This document shows positions 3,412 to 18,761 of a DNA stretch of 64,000 nucleotides, piece after piece. Within the stretch, counting starts at the first letter, position 1; every line of letters begins with the position of its first letter. Source of the DNA: Aquificaceae bacterium (GTDB lineage: Bacteria > Aquificota > Aquificia > Aquificales > Aquificaceae); assembly GCA_037924335.1 (NCBI GenBank), contig JAXSMZ010000001.1, positions 11,911 to 75,910 of the forward strand, given 5' to 3'. Made by a program: the position numbers and the translations under genes. The notes under the pieces are model-generated. The model worked only from the letters and a program-made list of their open reading frames with translations, did no database searches and was not told where the DNA came from.

Positions 3412-3415
<4 letters not shown>

Positions 3416-4137
3416 CCTTCATCATTATTTTGCAAACTCTGTGCCAACTCCTTCAGAAGGTTCACTATGCTTTCCATGCTTGGTTTTTCAGGCATTAAAC
3501 AATCCAACCCTGACAGAGAAGAAAACTCTTCTTTTGTAGTTTTGCCAATGCAGACCGTTATTTTACTCTTTAGAACCCTTATGGATTCTTCCTTTTGCAA
3601 ATTTGCAAAAAGACTTTTAATGGACGACGGACTTGCAAAGACCAATACATCAGCCTTGGATAGCTTGTCAAGGAGTTTCTTCCTTTCGTAAACAACCCCT
3701 TGCGTTGTGTACACATCGACTGGGTAGACATCAAATCCCAAATTTTTAAGCCCCTTTATGAGGTTGTCTTTTCCCTCTCTTGAGCGAGGTATGAGCACCT
3801 TCCCCCTCTTACCTTCCATGATTTTTAGAATCTCTGAAGCGTAGTACTTTTCTGGCACATGATGGACCCTGTAGCCGTACTTTTCAACGGATGACCTTGT
3901 AACTTCTCCAACTGCTATTATCCTTTCACCTCCCCCAAGCTTTTTTCTGTTCAAAAAGTATCTTACAGCTTTCTCGCTTTGAAAGATAACATAGTCAAAA
4001 GTATCATCTTGGAGCTCAAACTCCAAGGGCTTTATTTTTATCAAAGGGATAGCGATAACTTCAAATCCTTCCCTCTCAAATATCTTCCTGTCTTTCTGTA
4101 AGTCCTCTTTACTCCTTGTTAAACCCACTTTAAACAC
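3412..4137 (-). CDS. hemD: uroporphyrinogen-III synthase
   Basis: LTRS N-terminus, AVGEVT, VYTT, FASPSS, IGKTT motifs; GTG start. Confidence 0.88.
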
Positions 4138-4153
4138 GATAGAATTATTTTAC

Positions 4154-4300
4154 GAAACCTCCACAAGATGAATTGTGGTAAAATAATAATACATAAACCT
4201 GTCTGGCATAGGCAGTAATCTATGCCCTACCGCTGGACTGGCGGGAAGTTATGCCCCCACAAGGGGAAGCTCCTCATTGGAATAGAGGAGAGGAAGTCAC
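4154..4300 (+). mobile_element. non-autonomous IS200/IS605-derived mini-element with promoter and compact TnpB omega-RNA-like scaffold, copy 1
   Basis: Homologous to 17036-17192 (-); 66/70 identical over 4171-4240; follows TTTTAC; TGnTAAAAT at 4176-4184; ends GAAG-hairpin(CTCCTC..GAGGAG)-AGGAAGTCAC like IS605-group right ends. Confidence 0.75.
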
Positions 4301-4307
4301 GTAAGCA

Positions 4308-4375
4308 CTGAATGAGAAATTGGTTATGTAGGAGCAATTCATGAATGCCCTACAGAGGATGAATCTCTCACTCAG
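4308..4375. repeat. long imperfect hairpin with a GTAG-type REP-like palindrome at its core
   Basis: Outer arms CTGAATGAGAAATT (4308-4321) / AATCTCTCACTCAG (4362-4375); core TGTAGGAGCAATTCATGAATGCCCTACA (4327-4354). Confidence 0.6.
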
Positions 4376-4398
4376 CGTATGATAGAATTATTCTACAT

Positions 4399-5667
4399 AT
4401 GTCAAAGTTCCTAGTAAAGAAAGGAAGAGTTGTAGACCCATCCCAGAACATGGACGTTGTAAGAGATATTCTGATAGAGAATGGGGTGATAAAGAGCATT
4501 GGGGAAGATATATTTGAACATGATGCCCAAATTGTAGATGCATCGGGGAAGGTTGTATGCCCATCTTTTGTAGACTTTCATGTACACCTTAGAGACCCAG
4601 GTCAAACCTATAAAGAAGATATAGAATCTGGGAGCAGGTGTGCAGTGGCTGGTGGTTATACGCACATGGTTTGCATGCCCAACACAAAACCCCCAATAGA
4701 TTCACCGGAGATAGTAGAGTATATAAAGGATAAGGCAGAGAAAGTTGGTCTTTGCCGCATTATGCCATCTGGTGCTATAACAAAGGGTAGGGAGGGCAAA
4801 GAGCTGACAGACTTTTACGCACTAAAAAGGGCTGGATGCCTTGTCCTTACAGACGATGGTAGCCCTTTGATGGATTCAAGGCTTATGAAAAAAGCCCTTG
4901 AGCTTGCGGGACAGCTTGGCCTTCTTGTTATGAACCACTGTGAGGACGATAAACTGGCTTATGGGTATGTAAACGATGGATACGTGAGCAGTCTCTTAGG
5001 CGTTCTTCCAAGACCAAAAAGTGCCGAAGATATTCTGGTAGCAAGGGACTGTATACTTTCTTACTACACTGGTTCTCCCCTTCACATACAACATGTTAGC
5101 TCTCCACTTTCCGTTGATATGATAAGATACTTTAAAGATAAAGGTGCGAAAGTGTCCTGTGAGATAAACCCCCATCATCTTCTCTTTACGGAAGAGGAAG
5201 TTCTAAAAAGCGGGTCCAATGCTAGAATAAATCCACCACTGAGAAGCCAAAAAGACAGACAGGCTCTCCTTGAAGCTCTGAAAGATGGAACCATAGATTG
5301 CGTGGCAACAGACCATGCACCCCATGCACCATGGGAAAAGGGTCAGATAGAGAACGCAATGCCCGGAGTGATAGGTCTTCAGACGGCACTCCCTTCTATG
5401 CTGGAGTTGGTCAGAGAAGGCATCATAAACCTGAGAAGGGTGGTGGAACTGATGTCCTGCAACCCTGCAAAGCTTTTAGGGCTTGAATGTGGAATAAAAG
5501 AGGGGTCTTTGGCAAACTTAGTTATCTTTGACCCGGAGAGAGAATGGGTATTGGATGAAAGCACAAACCTTTCCAAATCTAAAAACACACCGCTTTGGAA
5601 CGGAAAGCTCAAAGGGAAAGTCCTTTACACTTTCTTTAATGGAAGGGTAGTTTACAAAGATGTTTAG
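4399..5667 (+). CDS. pyrC: dihydroorotase (type I)
   Basis: DFHVHLRDPG, MPNT, NPPLR, ATDHAPH motifs. Confidence 0.96.
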   Translation: MSKFLVKKGRVVDPSQNMDVVRDILIENGVIKSIGEDIFEHDAQIVDASGKVVCPSFVDFHVHLRDPGQTYKEDIESGSRCAVAGGYTHMVCMPNTKPPIDSPEIVEYIKDKAEKVGLCRIMPSGAITKGREGKELTDFYALKRAGCLVLTDDGSPLMDSRLMKKALELAGQLGLLVMNHCEDDKLAYGYVNDGYVSSLLGVLPRPKSAEDILVARDCILSYYTGSPLHIQHVSSPLSVDMIRYFKDKGAKVSCEINPHHLLFTEEEVLKSGSNARINPPLRSQKDRQALLEALKDGTIDCVATDHAPHAPWEKGQIENAMPGVIGLQTALPSMLELVREGIINLRRVVELMSCNPAKLLGLECGIKEGSLANLVIFDPEREWVLDESTNLSKSKNTPLWNGKLKGKVLYTFFNGRVVYKDV

Positions 5668-14094: not shown

Positions 14095-15179
14095 TAGATG
14101 TTATAGACCTGCATGTTAAAGTAAGAGCCTTTTCTTTAAAGAATGTATCCCTGAAGGTGCAAACTGGCTCATGCCATTGTCTGATAGGTCCCACTGGATG
14201 TGGCAAAACTACCCTTCTTGAGGCAATCCTTGGTTTGAGGAAGGTCGAAAAGGGAACAGTTCTGCTCGATGGAAAAGATATCACAAACCTACCTCTGCAT
14301 AAAAGGGGTTTCTCTTACGTTCCGCAGGATTTGGCCATATTCCCCCATCTCACGGTAGAGGAGAACATTATCTACGGAATAAAACATAGCAATGTTTCTA
14401 ATAAAAAGAAGAGGTACGATGAGGCCATTAAGTTGGTACACTTGCTTGGTATTGCACATTTACTTAAGAGGAAGGCTGTTAACCTCAGTGGTGGCGAAAA
14501 ACAAAGGGTCGCCCTCGCAAGGGCACTTGCACCAGGACACAAATATCTTCTTCTTGACGAACCTTTATCTGCCCTTCATGAAGGGATGAAAAAAGAGTTA
14601 TGGTTTCTACTTAAGGAATTGCAGAAGAAATATGAGTTTACTATCCTCATGGTAAGCCATGATATGGAGGAGACTTTTTTCTTAGCAGACCATGTAAGCA
14701 TTATGATAGATGGAGTTATTCATCAGTCTGATAGAAAGGATGTGGTCTACCGTTATCCCTCAAACTCTGAGGTAGCAAGGTTCTTTGGTATAAAGAACAT
14801 ATTTAATGGAGATATAAAGGGTAAGGAAGGTGATCACTATAGACTTTACTGTAAAGAACTAAACGGAGAGATACTGTTGCCCATTGATAGAATAAACAAC
14901 ATGCCAGAGAGAGGGAGCATTACATTTGGTATAAGAAGCGAGGATGTTATCATGCTAAGGCCAGACCTGCCTATGAAAAAGGAGAACACCATCACGGGTG
15001 TCGTAAAAGAGATACATCCTGCTGGCTCAAACTCGGTTGTAATGTTCAAACCTGATGGCTCTGATAAACTGATCGAGATAACCATCCCCGACTATGCTTT
15101 TGCAAAGCTTTACCCAAAGCCATCTATGCGTGCAAACATTACTCTAAGAAGTGATAGGCTTTTTGTGCTGAAAAGCTAA
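14091..15179 (+). CDS. modC: molybdate/tungstate ABC transporter ATP-binding protein
   Basis: [23 protein letters not shown]-terminal TOBE-like region. Confidence 0.85.
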
Positions 15180-17035
15180 CCCTCATATCTGAGGTAAACT
15201 CCTGCAAGGGGAGGGAGTGTGAGAAGGACCGAGTATGGCCTTCCATGAAAGGGAAAATCCTCAGCGTAAACTCCCTCTGCATCTCCAAAGCCAGAACCTC
15301 CGTAAACTTTTGCATCGCTGTTTATTATTCTTTTCCAGAATCCCTTTTTGGGTACTCCTATCCTGTAGTTCTCCCTTGGGACGGGCGTGAAGTTGAAAAC
15401 GCAAAGGATAAGGTTATCCCTAGATTTTCTTAAAAAGCTTATAACACTCTGCTCGTAGTCAGAAAAATCTATCCACTCAAAGCCTTCCCAGCTGAAGTCT
15501 ATCTCATAGAGTGCTGGGTTCTCTTTTACCATTCCGTTTAGGTCTCTTACTAAATTCTGAACTCCTCTGTGTGTATCCCAGTCAAGGAGGAACCAGTCTA
15601 GGCCTCTGTCGTGGTTCCACTCCTCCCACTGTCCAAACTCTCCCCCCATGAAGAGAAGTTTTTTACCAGGATGAGCGTACATGTAAGTAAAAAGAAGCCT
15701 TAGGTTGGCAAATTTCTGCCACCAGTCTTTTGGCATCTTGCTTATAAGCGAGCCTTTGCCATGAACTACCTCGTCATGGGAGAGAGGGAGGAGGAAGTTC
15801 TCAGAGAAGGCGTACCACATGCTAAAGGTCAAGCTATCATGGTGGTACTTTCTGTGTATTGGGTCCTTAGAAAAGTAATAGAGGGTATCGTGCATCCATC
15901 CCATATTCCATTTCATACCAAAGCCAAGACCTCCCAAGTATGTGGGCCTAGTCACCATAGGCCATGCCGTTGACTCTTCTGCTATGGTTTGAACATGGGG
16001 GAAGTCCCTGTATATACATTCGTTTAGCTTCCTTATAAAATCAATAGCTTCCAAGTTTTCCCTTCCACCGTATACGTTTGGTGTCCATTGACCATCTTTT
16101 CTCGAATAATCAAGATAGAGCATAGAGGCAACAGCATCTACTCTGACAGCATCTATGTGGTACTTTTCAAACCAAAAGTGAGCAGAGCTCAGAAGAAAGG
16201 ACCTTACCTCTGGCTTTGAATAGTCAAAGATATAGCTGTTCCAGTCTGGGTGGTGTCTCTTCCTGTGGTCTTCGTATTCGTAAAGATGAGTTCCGTCAAA
16301 GTAAACCAAGGCGTGGCCATCTGTGGGAAAGTGAGATGGTACCCAGTCAAGCACTACACCTATACCCTCCTGGTGCAGTCTATCAACTAAGTACATAAAG
16401 TCTTGCGGTTTACCGTAGCGTGAAGTGGGGGCAAAGTAACCAGTTGTCTGGTAGCCCCAAGAGCCGTAAAAGGGATGCTCCATGATGGGTAAAAACTCCA
16501 CATGAGTAAAACCCATATGCTTTACGTAATCTACAAGCTCATGAGCAAGTTCCCTGTAGCTTAAAGATTCCCACCCCCTCTTCTTCCAAGAGCCAAGATG
16601 AACCTCGTATATGAGCCAAGGAGAGCTAAGCGAGTTTTCTGTATGTCTTTTTTCAATCCATCCTCTATCGTTCCATGTATAATCCATGTCCCACACTATG
16701 CTTGCCGTTTTTGGTGGTACTTCAAAGAAGAAGCCAAAGGGGTCTGTCTTTTCCGCCTCATAGCCTGTCTTTGAAACTATAAAGTATTTGTAAAGGTCTC
16801 CCGCCTTAGCTTCTGGCACAAAGGCTTCCCATATGCCAGAACCGTCCTCTCTTCTTTTCATAGGGTTTTTGCCTCTGTCCCAATGGTTAAAGCCCCCTAT
16901 AACAGACAGATAAACAGCATTTGGAGCCCACACGGCAAAGTAAACGCCACCATTCAAAGGATGAGCACCCAGCTTATCGTAAAGCCTACAATGAGCCCCT
17001 TCTCTAAAGAGATAAACATCATAGTCTGTGATCAT
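15176..17035 (-). CDS. glgB: 1,4-alpha-glucan branching enzyme
   Basis: [47 protein letters not shown]. Confidence 0.97.
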
Positions 17036-17192
17036 ATGACCTCCTCTCCTTACTCAAAGGAGGAGCTTCCCTTCCTCAGGGCATCACTTCCCTCAGTCCA
17101 GCGGTAAGGCATAGAGAACTGCCTATGCCAGACAGGTTTATGTATTATTATTTTATCACAATTTAAAAGGAGAGCCTTCTTGTGGATGTTTC
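17036..17192 (-). mobile_element. IS200/IS605-derived mini-element with omega-RNA-like scaffold, copy 2, forming the glgB leader
   Basis: Reverse complement aligns with 4154-4300; follows TTTTAC; TGnTAAAAT at 17158-17150; ends GGAGGTCAT directly before the glgB ATG. Confidence 0.75.
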
Positions 17193-17239
17193 GTAAAACT
17201 CATGCAAAAAAAATTTTAATGTATAAAATAAATGGCATT

Positions 17240-17812
17240 ATGGGAAATGTAGAAACGAATTGGGAGCGATTGGAAGGTATCATCGAGGACATCTACAGTT
17301 CTACAAAGCACTTTGATATTGGGTGTTCCCAGCTTAACTGTTTCCTCTGCGCCAAAGGAGGGAAAAGGTCCCCTGAGTGTCAAAGGTTGAACGAAGCCGT
17401 AGTGCTTCTTCCCACTGAGAACCAAATGATAGGGAAGCTCAACTCTGTTAACTTTCCTGAGATAAACGTAAATGGCTTCAGCATAGGATTTTTGGCACCT
17501 GAGCAAGACTGCCCTTTCAACGTAGATGGTTTTTGCGGTATACATGGAAAACATCCCATAGACTGCAGGAGCTTCCCAATAATACCCTCTGTGAGCGAAA
17601 GGGGTGACCTCATCATCTCAATATCCCTCAAGTGTCCAGTCACTCCACCTTGGGAGTTTGTCAAGACTTGGGTGGAAAACTGGAGGAAGCTGTGGGAAGT
17701 TCTTCCAGATGAATGGTTAAAGTTTTACTCTAACGTGCCAACAAATCCAACAAAACCTATAGCCATGTTCAAAGCCGAGGGTCGGTTTAAATGCGATGCA
17801 TCTGATAGATGA
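17240..17812 (+). CDS. YkgJ/FliB-like cysteine-cluster protein
   Basis: CSQLNCFLC...C, CPF...CGIHGKHPIDCRSFP; start uncertain (ATG 17219 or 17240; the 17180 start lies inside the mini-element). Confidence 0.65.
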   Translation: MGNVETNWERLEGIIEDIYSSTKHFDIGCSQLNCFLCAKGGKRSPECQRLNEAVVLLPTENQMIGKLNSVNFPEINVNGFSIGFLAPEQDCPFNVDGFCGIHGKHPIDCRSFPIIPSVSERGDLIISISLKCPVTPPWEFVKTWVENWRKLWEVLPDEWLKFYSNVPTNPTKPIAMFKAEGRFKCDASDR

Positions 17813-18761
17813 GCTCACAAAGAAATTAAATGGACAGTTGGTTCAAACTCACACCAGTTGGGTTGTCCTTTTGGAAGACATAGTGTACAAGATAAAGAAA
17901 CCAGTAAACTTTGGTTTTTTGGACTACTCCACCCTTGAGAAGAGAAAGGAAAACTGCGAAAGAGAAGTGATGCTAAACAAAAGACTCTGTCATAACATTT
18001 ACCTTGGAGTTGTACCCATAAGCCTTGTAGGTGGTAAATACTATATTGAGAACTCTACGAATGTGATTGAGTATGCCGTTAAGATGAGAAGAGTGCCACA
18101 GGAAAGGTTGCTCGTTAACATGCTCAGCAAGGTAAGCGTAGATGATATAAAAAGACTGGCAGAACATATAGCCAACTTTCATATAAAAGCTGAGAGAAGG
18201 GATGATTTTGGAAGGATTGAGGTTATGAAGTTCAACACAGACGAGAACTTCATGCAGACTGAAAAGTACATAGGTATAACTGTAGAGAAGGAAGACTACG
18301 AGCTTATAGTAAGCAAGACAGAAAAGTTCTACAGAAGATACAGTTATCTCTTTGAAAAAAGGATAAAAGACGGTAGGATAAGGGATGGGCATGGAGATAT
18401 GAGGTTGGAGCATGTTGCCTTCCTCAACGATAAGGTCTGCGTCTTTGATTGTATAGAATTCAATGAAAGGTTTAGATGCGGTGATGTTTTAAACGATATG
18501 TGCTTTCTTTCCATGGAGCTTGAATTTTATGGCAAAGATACCCTTGCCAAAGCTTATGAAGAGCGCTATAAGGAAATAACCCAGGATGATGAGTTTGAGG
18601 TCTTTCTTCCTTTCTTTAAATGCTACAGGGCTTATGTAAGAGGTAAAGTGAACAGCTTTCTGCTAGATGACCCAAGCTATCAGGAAAAGGAAAAAGCTAA
18701 AGCTCTTGCAAGTGAGCTTTTCAAACTCAGCAGAAGGTACGCAGAAGAGATATCAGTCTAA
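17796..18761 (+). CDS. aminoglycoside-phosphotransferase/kinase-like protein (COG2187-type)
   Basis: QTHTSWV, YKIKKPVNFGFLDYS, GHGDMRLEH, FDCIEFN, YRAYVRGKV. Confidence 0.8.
   Translation: MHLIDELTKKLNGQLVQTHTSWVVLLEDIVYKIKKPVNFGFLDYSTLEKRKENCEREVMLNKRLCHNIYLGVVPISLVGGKYYIENSTNVIEYAVKMRRVPQERLLVNMLSKVSVDDIKRLAEHIANFHIKAERRDDFGRIEVMKFNTDENFMQTEKYIGITVEKEDYELIVSKTEKFYRRYSYLFEKRIKDGRIRDGHGDMRLEHVAFLNDKVCVFDCIEFNERFRCGDVLNDMCFLSMELEFYGKDTLAKAYEERYKEITQDDEFEVFLPFFKCYRAYVRGKVNSFLLDDPSYQEKEKAKALASELFKLSRRYAEEISV

Follow-up and report, generated by a model that had tools for sequence, protein, structure and literature searches.

Gene-less IS200/IS605 elements with a short omega-RNA-type end in an Aquificaceae genome

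Two copies of a non-coding element of about 150 bp, one between hemD and pyrC and one abutting glgB, raise the question of what such elements are, where they came from and whether they serve the cell. They lie in a 64,000-nucleotide stretch of Aquificaceae DNA (the window; contig C1:11911-75910 of its own genome assembly, G000, which comprises 1.53 Mb in 39 contigs and is 99.94% complete as judged from marker genes). Metagenome runs containing window DNA come from hot springs, and an Aquificaceae MAG carries near-identical elements. A sequence-only reading had interpreted the two copies as IS200/IS605 remnants that lost tnpA and tnpB and kept a promoter fused to a minimised TnpB omega-RNA scaffold, and had proposed that they form a scattered guide-RNA repertoire for a TnpB encoded elsewhere. 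The transposon origin is borne out, and we consider it highly probable that the copies are non-autonomous IS200/IS605 elements (PATEs), produced by internal deletion of a tnpB-only element, with the omega-RNA end kept and the system orphaned here. The proposed repertoire fares badly, as described below.

In a 164-column alignment the two copies agree at 81% (E 2.8e-39 for a search of the whole 1.53-Mb genome), so the repeat is not due to chance, and all the parts first described lie at the places given for them (Table 1). The repeat is thus real, but its limits are narrower than proposed because the TTTTAC included in it is target DNA. The shared order of parts also stands, whereas the loss of the left-end hairpin from both copies and the breakage of stem 1 (CCGYT/RRCGG) in copy 2 had been missed. 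In copy 1, 24 nt that lay between AGA repeats are gone after position 4168, comprising an AAGG guide motif and a CTCTCC..GGAGAG hairpin; copy 2 has lost the 3' arm of this hairpin (12 nt) and terminates in TCAT. A promoter scan flagged the -10 box of neither copy; copy 2 yielded no site and copy 1 a different one (9/12). An Rfam search over the window returned four tRNAs only, with no family assigned to the element at gathering score. Two ORFs divergent from glgB (17180-17812 and 17796-18761, plus strand) have no Pfam or NCBIfam match; the former is conserved within the genus.

Table 1. Features of the two copies and their surroundings, in positions of the window
Feature	Position	Strand	Basis or remark
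hemD-like uroporphyrinogen-III synthase gene	3412..4137	-	NF004594, E 7e-100, 333 bits, below the 365 cut-off; divergent from copy 1
TTTTAC before copy 1	4148-4153	+	target DNA, outside the element
TTTAC target motif, copy 1	4149..4153	+	left cleavage site / predicted TAM; flanking DNA
Copy 1, gene-less IS200/IS605 element (PATE), 147 bp	4154..4300	+	RNA model match E 5.8e-28, copy 1 itself being among the sequences in the model
Truncated left end, copy 1	4154..4175	+	comparison with the C30, C4 and C23 copies
Extended -10-like box TG-n-TAAAAT	4176..4184	+	read by eye from the consensus; putative native tnpB promoter
5' hairpin GGCATAG/CTATGCC	4205..4226	+	derives from the last tnpB codons; encoded in parent C-termini
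Stem 1 with pseudoknot loop GGACT (4235-4239)	4230..4244	+	loop core GACT 4236-4239
Stem 2, 4 bp, 5-nt closing loop	4254..4266	+	stem-3 equivalent of relatives absent here
Right end: GAAG guide motif, hairpin, pseudoknot strand, cleavage site	4266..4300	+	sequence
Right-end hairpin CTCCTC/GAGGAG	4270-4290	+	copy 1
Pseudoknot strand AGTC; TCAC cleavage site	4295-4298; 4297-4300	+	copy 1
Predicted guide of copy 1	4301..4316	+	start of the 79-bp remnant of another, inverted-repeat element
79-bp remnant of unrelated inverted-repeat element	4301..4379	+	adjoins copy 1
pyrC dihydroorotase	4399..5667	+	NF006844, 732 bits, above cut-off; 98 nt 3' of copy 1
glgB glycogen branching enzyme	15176..17035	-	NCBIfam NF003811, 960 bits, above cut-off; start adjoins copy 2
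Copy 2, PATE, 157 bp	17036..17192	-	now glgB leader, by position
AGGAGG in copy 2 right end	17040..17045	-	4 nt before glgB ATG; possible ribosome-binding site
TTTAC target motif, copy 2	17193..17197	-	within TTTTAC 17198-17193

Further copies after TTTAC had been predicted, and the genome contains 13 copies in total, copies 1 and 2 included. A fuzzy search of the assembly for the right-end motif gave 27 matches, 13 of them with a hairpin before the motif; an RNA model built from 23 sequences recovers 12 of the 13 copies at E <= 5.5e-10, together with two weak unrelated matches, and the thirteenth, a 51-nt ends-only form after TTTAC, was found by BLAST. TTTAC precedes 11 copies, TTTAT precedes one, and the left part of the remaining one is displaced by another element. 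The intact form is 170 nt and consists of TTTAC, about 14 nt, AAGG, the CTCTCC..GGAGAG hairpin, the -10-like box, the scaffold and the right end. The left hairpin is kept in 8/13 copies, which thus have both hairpins, while the window copies have the right one only; the -10-like box is present in 7/13. The anatomy proposed for the right end (GAAG guide motif, hairpin, TCAC) is confirmed, with TCAC as the terminus in 12 of the 13. In IS608, a guide motif pairs with the cleavage site at each end; here AAGG would pair with TTAC and GAAG with TCAC, and a second family in G000 has GAGG with TCAC at its left end. The mini-elements (147-219 nt) contain no protein gene, and the family also includes a frameshifted tnpB relic of 712 nt, bounded by the same two ends. 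BLASTN with copy 1 in 60 relatives matched four genomes, in right-end fragments only, and no match was found in plasmid and phage collections.

Several observations concern the neighbours of other copies. Those at C4:27625 and C4:54902 are nested in or adjoin remnants of other tnpB elements, and at C30:11998 and C1:174923 the right-end TCA is, on the opposite strand, the stop codon of a convergent ORF. A second TnpB family in this genome, ending in GGAACTAT, has short derivatives of its own (C27:12200-12332, C4:55091-55330, C18:239-480, and many at contig ends), one of which interrupts the -10 box of the C27 copy.

The mode of insertion identifies the transposon type. A contig from run X8, of a related strain, skips exactly 17036-17192 (the shorter flank spans at least 255 letters), and copy 2 is absent at glgB in all six same-genus genomes compared. 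The C30 copy likewise has a clean empty site, in the relative G006. TTTAC is kept at both empty sites, and insertion was exactly 3' of it without target duplication, which is a signature of IS200/IS605 elements (PMC8612924). Together with ends shared with tnpB and tnpA elements, this upholds the proposed origin. No clean empty site turned up for copies C23, C2:130128 and C8. At the copy 1 site, X8 lacks 243 bp (4136-4378), which is not a clean empty site.

An 18-bp sequence borders copy 1 and the adjoining 79-bp remnant on both sides, in two versions (4136-4153 and 4380-4397); G006 has a single 18-mer there. The inverted-repeat family of the remnant has 15 ends in our searches and two complete copies (C4:78315-78659 and C5:54714-55127) with target duplications of 23 and 25 bp; the duplication here is 18 bp with two mismatches. 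This family, many ends of which lie just before AT-rich -10-like sequences, presumably resembles IS982-type elements; PF13612 has no match in G000. The 18-mer contains -10-like hexamers on both strands between the divergent hemD and pyrC genes, both flagged by the promoter scan, and in G006 one 18-mer copy separates the two start codons. Judged from these features, it looks like a two-way leaderless promoter.

PATEs were defined in Haloquadratum (PMC3119063) and described in Halanaerobium (PMC7290912) and Geobacillus stearothermophilus (PMC10055086); according to the last of these papers, PATEs often encode omega-RNAs that need to be used in trans. Stand-alone omega-RNAs are able to function in trans (PMC10691335). 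The present family shares with known PATEs hairpins near both ends without terminal inverted repeats, insertion without target duplication, the absence of coding capacity, an origin by core deletion and strain-specific insertions. It differs in that its own assembly yielded neither an intact tnpA nor an intact cognate tnpB, in a much shorter scaffold and in the lack of the left hairpin from the window copies. Like the stand-alone omega-RNAs, it is a mobilised scaffold without effector or transposase and with a flank-derived guide; the genomes that carry those RNAs also have an effector locus, and action in trans has been demonstrated for them (PMC10691335), whereas the present family is known from sequence. 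The element type and the use of omega-RNAs in trans are already in print (PMC10055086, PMC10691335), and the distinctive point is the inherited scaffold without stem 3 in a family of the PATE kind.

That inheritance is traced through the tnpB genes from which the elements derive. Full-length tnpB elements with matching ends had been predicted and were found in relatives. L089 and L099, which are more distant than the L110 group, share TTTTAC, AAGG, the left hairpin and TCAC with the mini-elements. A tnpA+tnpB element in G014 carries the same hairpin sequences with a different left guide region, and the right-end layout of copy 1 recurs at its end. The element ends are common to the relic, L089, L099, L110 and L128. 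A pattern scan gave 19 metagenome loci, 14 matches in genomes, five of which are chance matches in unrelated genes, and six viral matches in which no element was found. Four loci (L103, L106, L110, L114) are tnpB 3' ends that share the short right end of the mini-elements. In L110 the frame is open over 289 codons and truncated by the start of its contig; other insertions break up the remaining three. Over the final 74 alignment columns, the C30 and C8 copies are 100% identical to the 3' end of the L110 tnpB ORF. The mini-element joins the left end and promoter-like box to the last ~105 nt of the parent, and every one of the separate deletions (the two subfamilies, L121 and the C8/C2 type) ends at the 5' hairpin or immediately ahead of it. 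In L121, the retained tnpB start MKLEKIKQKIQ follows the -10 box by 9 nt, indicating that the box is most likely the native tnpB promoter. The loss of tnpA and tnpB with fusion of a promoter-like box to the scaffold thus agrees with the first reading, the box itself being predicted.

A protein search with L110 returned 140 matches, among which P0001-P0003 (425-436 aa) are 76-91% identical. The scaffold overlaps the tnpB 3' end, as seen in the L110 ORF: the short end is spelled by the C-termini of P0002, P0003, P0121, P0122 and P0007, the last a fragment from an archaeon, and the long end by those of P0004-P0006 and P0124, P0001 stopping too early. Intact ORFs of 436 aa end in the short form in two clusters (P0002; P0003 with P0121 and P0122). 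Genome contigs gave one irrelevant match with the relic frame, none with L110, and 17 loci at 46-61% identity with P0002. Against 178 genomes of the phylum, P0002 matched in 34, none above 63% identity and none in G000; viral contigs gave two loci (52-54% identity). The whole DNA of a short-scaffold parent, left end included, was not found across the metagenome, genome and viral searches. In P0001-P0007, the ~35 residues that immediately precede the RNA region (alignment A1, columns 385-420) align with the omega-RNA-encoding stretch of distant relatives, as if an old RNA end had turned coding and a new right end had been added.

The claim that the mini-elements minimised their scaffold does not hold, as the same short end closes full-length tnpB genes; shortening by the mini-element itself was rejected because the short end is already present in L110 and in the parent C-termini. 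The absence of stem 3a is a variant rather than damage to the minis, because it is also absent in the parent. The minis inherited their short scaffold from one TnpB subclade (P0002, P0003, P0007, L110). From GCC to GAAG, the stem-3 region measures 10 nt here versus 32-76 nt in longer relatives. Gene-less minis with a long or separately shortened stem 3 also occur (L045, L048, L044, L036 and L022, from Thermotoga, Aquificales and other bins). The same mini-element is present in an Aenigmatarchaeota MAG (L175), where misbinning is possible, and P0124, a close parent protein, lies in an archaeal bin; with P0007, these sequences suggest transfer between domains in hot springs.

The predicted RNA structure is consistent with an omega-RNA. 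In the alignment of 23 sequences, pairing holds in 97.8% of 595 cells, and 9 of the 26 pairs show changes on both sides; none of 500 shuffles reaches the observed pairing and covariation (slid controls 36-53%), although the shuffle control overstates covariation, as the sequences are related and share changes. In the 5' hairpin, 4/7 pairs change on both sides, mostly through one split between two subfamilies, and in stem 2, 2/4 do so. The pseudoknot proposed between the stem-1 loop and the 3' end, which characterises omega-RNAs, holds up in wider relatives, where 41 of 47 loci matched the pattern: the loop GGACC pairs with GGTC in 14/14, the loop GGACT is accompanied by AGTC in 19/25, GGTC in 3/25 and TGTC in 3/25, and two rows have other loops. 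Copies 1 and 2 alone fold no better than shuffles (z -1.31, with 16/200 as good, and z -1.62, with 14/200), but a sister copy (z -2.65) and the parent end (z -3.30) do. At E <= 1, Rfam has no match in L016, L028, L021 and L110; sub-threshold RAGATH-18/HgcC matches appear only in the long relatives L044 and L115, and no family (HEARO, RAGATH-18, HgcC, others) matches at gathering score.

The ISDra2 omega-RNA is similarly organised: its stem-1 loop pairs with bases immediately 5' of the cleavage site, and stem 2, the right-end hairpin, a flank guide of about 16 nt and the overlap with the tnpB 3' end are all shared (PMC10097598, PMC8612924). The length differs, ISDra2 requiring 116 nt from stem 1 to the end versus 71 nt in the short scaffold. 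In ISDra2, stem 3a contacts RuvC and engineering removed only stem 3b, whereas all of stem 3 is absent here. Scaffold trimming and short Fanzor RNAs are known (PMC13639567, PMC11423790), and the available passages of these two papers name no TnpB RNA without stem 3. Searches of the open-access literature gave no description of the subclade or its scaffold, which the supplementary tables of TnpB surveys may list.

Whether such an RNA is loaded depends on the protein, and a possible, if rather doubtful, account is that the elements are plain PATEs whose scaffold is a never-loaded passenger: loss of stem 3 or of the catalytic Glu would have disabled the parent system, and spread would need only TnpA and the ends. 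Stems 2 and 3a contact RuvC in ISDra2 (PMC10097598), which makes the complete absence of stem 3 a point for this account, as is the RuvC-II residue: among 124 aligned homologs, Asp is kept at RuvC-I (D203, 122/124) and RuvC-III (D360, 121/124), and RuvC-II is Gln (Q283) in 123/124. The existence of the 51-nt ends-only copy after TTTAC and the failure to find the cognate protein in the assembly point the same way. Against a passenger role, the short end closes intact ORFs in two clusters and the archaeal fragment, stem 2 and the pseudoknot vary while their pairing stays, and 10/13 copies retain the full-length scaffold though about 35 nt suffices for the right end.

Replacement of the RuvC-II Glu with retention of the RuvC-I and -III Asp residues is also known from RIIr TnpBs (PMC10691335) and TvTnpB (PMC10530073); the replacement is Gly or Pro in those proteins and Gln in the parent protein here. 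Other acids conserved among the 124 homologs are E224 (113/124) and D/E285 (123/124). A position about 43 residues after RuvC-II, Gln in the parent clade and variable elsewhere, was considered as a replacement Glu and dropped, since, of 112 proteins from outside the clade, only 65 have Glu there. The AlphaFold model of P0001 (mean pLDDT 76) matches TnpB 8H1J (E 5e-13) and is unreliable around RuvC-II (pLDDT under 50 at 284-306).

Under the favoured explanation, an orphaned PATE with a kept omega-RNA end, the life of the element can be outlined by analogy with the mechanism described in PMC8612924 and PMC10055086. A Y1 TnpA acting in trans would move the element as single-stranded DNA. The promoter, now beside the scaffold, would drive synthesis of an omega-RNA with ~16 flank-derived nt at its 3' end; this RNA would load on the parent TnpB and target only its own empty site (TTTAC plus flank), and cutting of the empty site would drive repair that restores the element. 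The outcome would be selfish maintenance rather than a host guide library. Counting against this explanation, no Y1 tnpA (PF01797) matches in G000, so the mobiliser is missing or gone; PF01797 was found in 11 of 71 genomes searched in the family, and no serine resolvase (PF00239) matches in G000 either. In 3/13 copies the scaffold is incomplete, so spread does not depend on the RNA; the unclean empty site of copy 1 and the promoter scan that missed the box also weigh against the explanation. The system looks orphaned today because no intact cognate tnpB or tnpA was found and the window copies lack the left-end hairpin needed for excision.

A working repertoire of scattered guides, directing a TnpB or nuclease-dead TnpB elsewhere in the genome to host or foreign targets, is very unlikely. 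It is favoured by the retention of both promoter box and scaffold in 7/13 copies and by the stand-alone omega-RNAs that act in trans in other organisms (PMC10691335), and a gene could be unassembled, as the assembly has 39 contigs with many tnpB pieces at contig ends; 0/13 right ends of the family, however, lie at a contig end. G000 contains 7 PF01385 and 23 PF07282 matches with other end types, many at contig ends, but the only cognate tnpB sequence is the frameshifted, internally deleted relic, and the best non-relic match to the parent is ~30% identical. The TnpB expected elsewhere and the compatible effector that accompanies stand-alone omega-RNAs were thus not found in this assembly. Nor do the guides point to targets. 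When the 13 guides were compared with 6,218 TTTAC sites, the best matches had 4-6 mismatches in 16 nt, like those of 40 random controls (3-6), so that no guide beats the controls, and the two window guides have no exact match in viral contigs. The guides are not conserved, because the insertions are strain-specific (copy 2, C30). The family resembles the nuclease-dead TnpB repressors called TldR (PMC10705468) in involving a TnpB-derived protein with an altered RuvC and an omega-like RNA. TldR loci are fixed and carry conserved guides to promoters. Here, by contrast, the elements move, two of the three catalytic residues persist in the parent, and no conserved host target of this kind was found for any of the 13 guides. 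In RNA run X9, for which contigs only are available and the presence of the host is uncertain (7/30 bins covered), a contig across the right end differs from copy 1 by one deleted base.

A third possibility, that the family is a cis-regulatory RNA, a riboswitch-like leader before genes, is extremely unlikely. Copy 2 invites it, since it abuts the glgB ATG with AGGAGG in a hairpin arm, and an ORF lies downstream on the same strand in 7/13 copies. Yet four copies face opposite-strand genes, one lies between two ORF pieces and one has no ORF near; the downstream genes are unrelated to each other, the six relatives lack the element at glgB, and it derives from a tnpB 3' end without an Rfam match. 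The co-orientation of only 7/13 and the unrelated genes indicate that this is not a cis-regulatory family.

Copy 2 nevertheless places a -10 box and AGGAGG before the glgB ATG, the latter partly paired within the right-end hairpin in the predicted fold. Judging from this arrangement, copy 2 serves in cis as the glgB leader; an effect on glgB output is likely, and this local effect is likely a side effect of the insertion. In five of six relatives, an ATG lies 12 nt upstream in frame with glgB (M-N-F/L-S-M/L), and the corresponding spacing is 11 nt in G006 and in this genome's own empty form, which puts the ATG out of frame. Copy 2, inserted at the remaining ATG, may have rescued or changed glgB expression.

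A further reading goes beyond the orphaned elements to their source, and we put it forward tentatively, as a serious possibility: the parent subclade (P0002, P0003, P0007, L110) would comprise working, heat-stable Gln-type TnpBs with a stem-3-less scaffold of ~71-76 nt, and the minis would be self-promoted guide cassettes that spread among hot-spring Aquificaceae and archaea and load the nuclease in trans wherever a parent is present. If so, the subclade scaffold would be shorter than the engineered ISDra2 Trim2 RNA, and the short-scaffold system may merit trial as a compact, heat-stable editing tool. Intact tnpB genes with a natural loss of the whole of stem 3 would provide a direct test of the minimal size of a TnpB guide RNA, and the Gln-type RuvC of the hot-spring protein offers a chance to learn how such a RuvC works. 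For the host genome, copy 2 appears to be a clean case of a PATE that became fixed and was turned into a gene leader.
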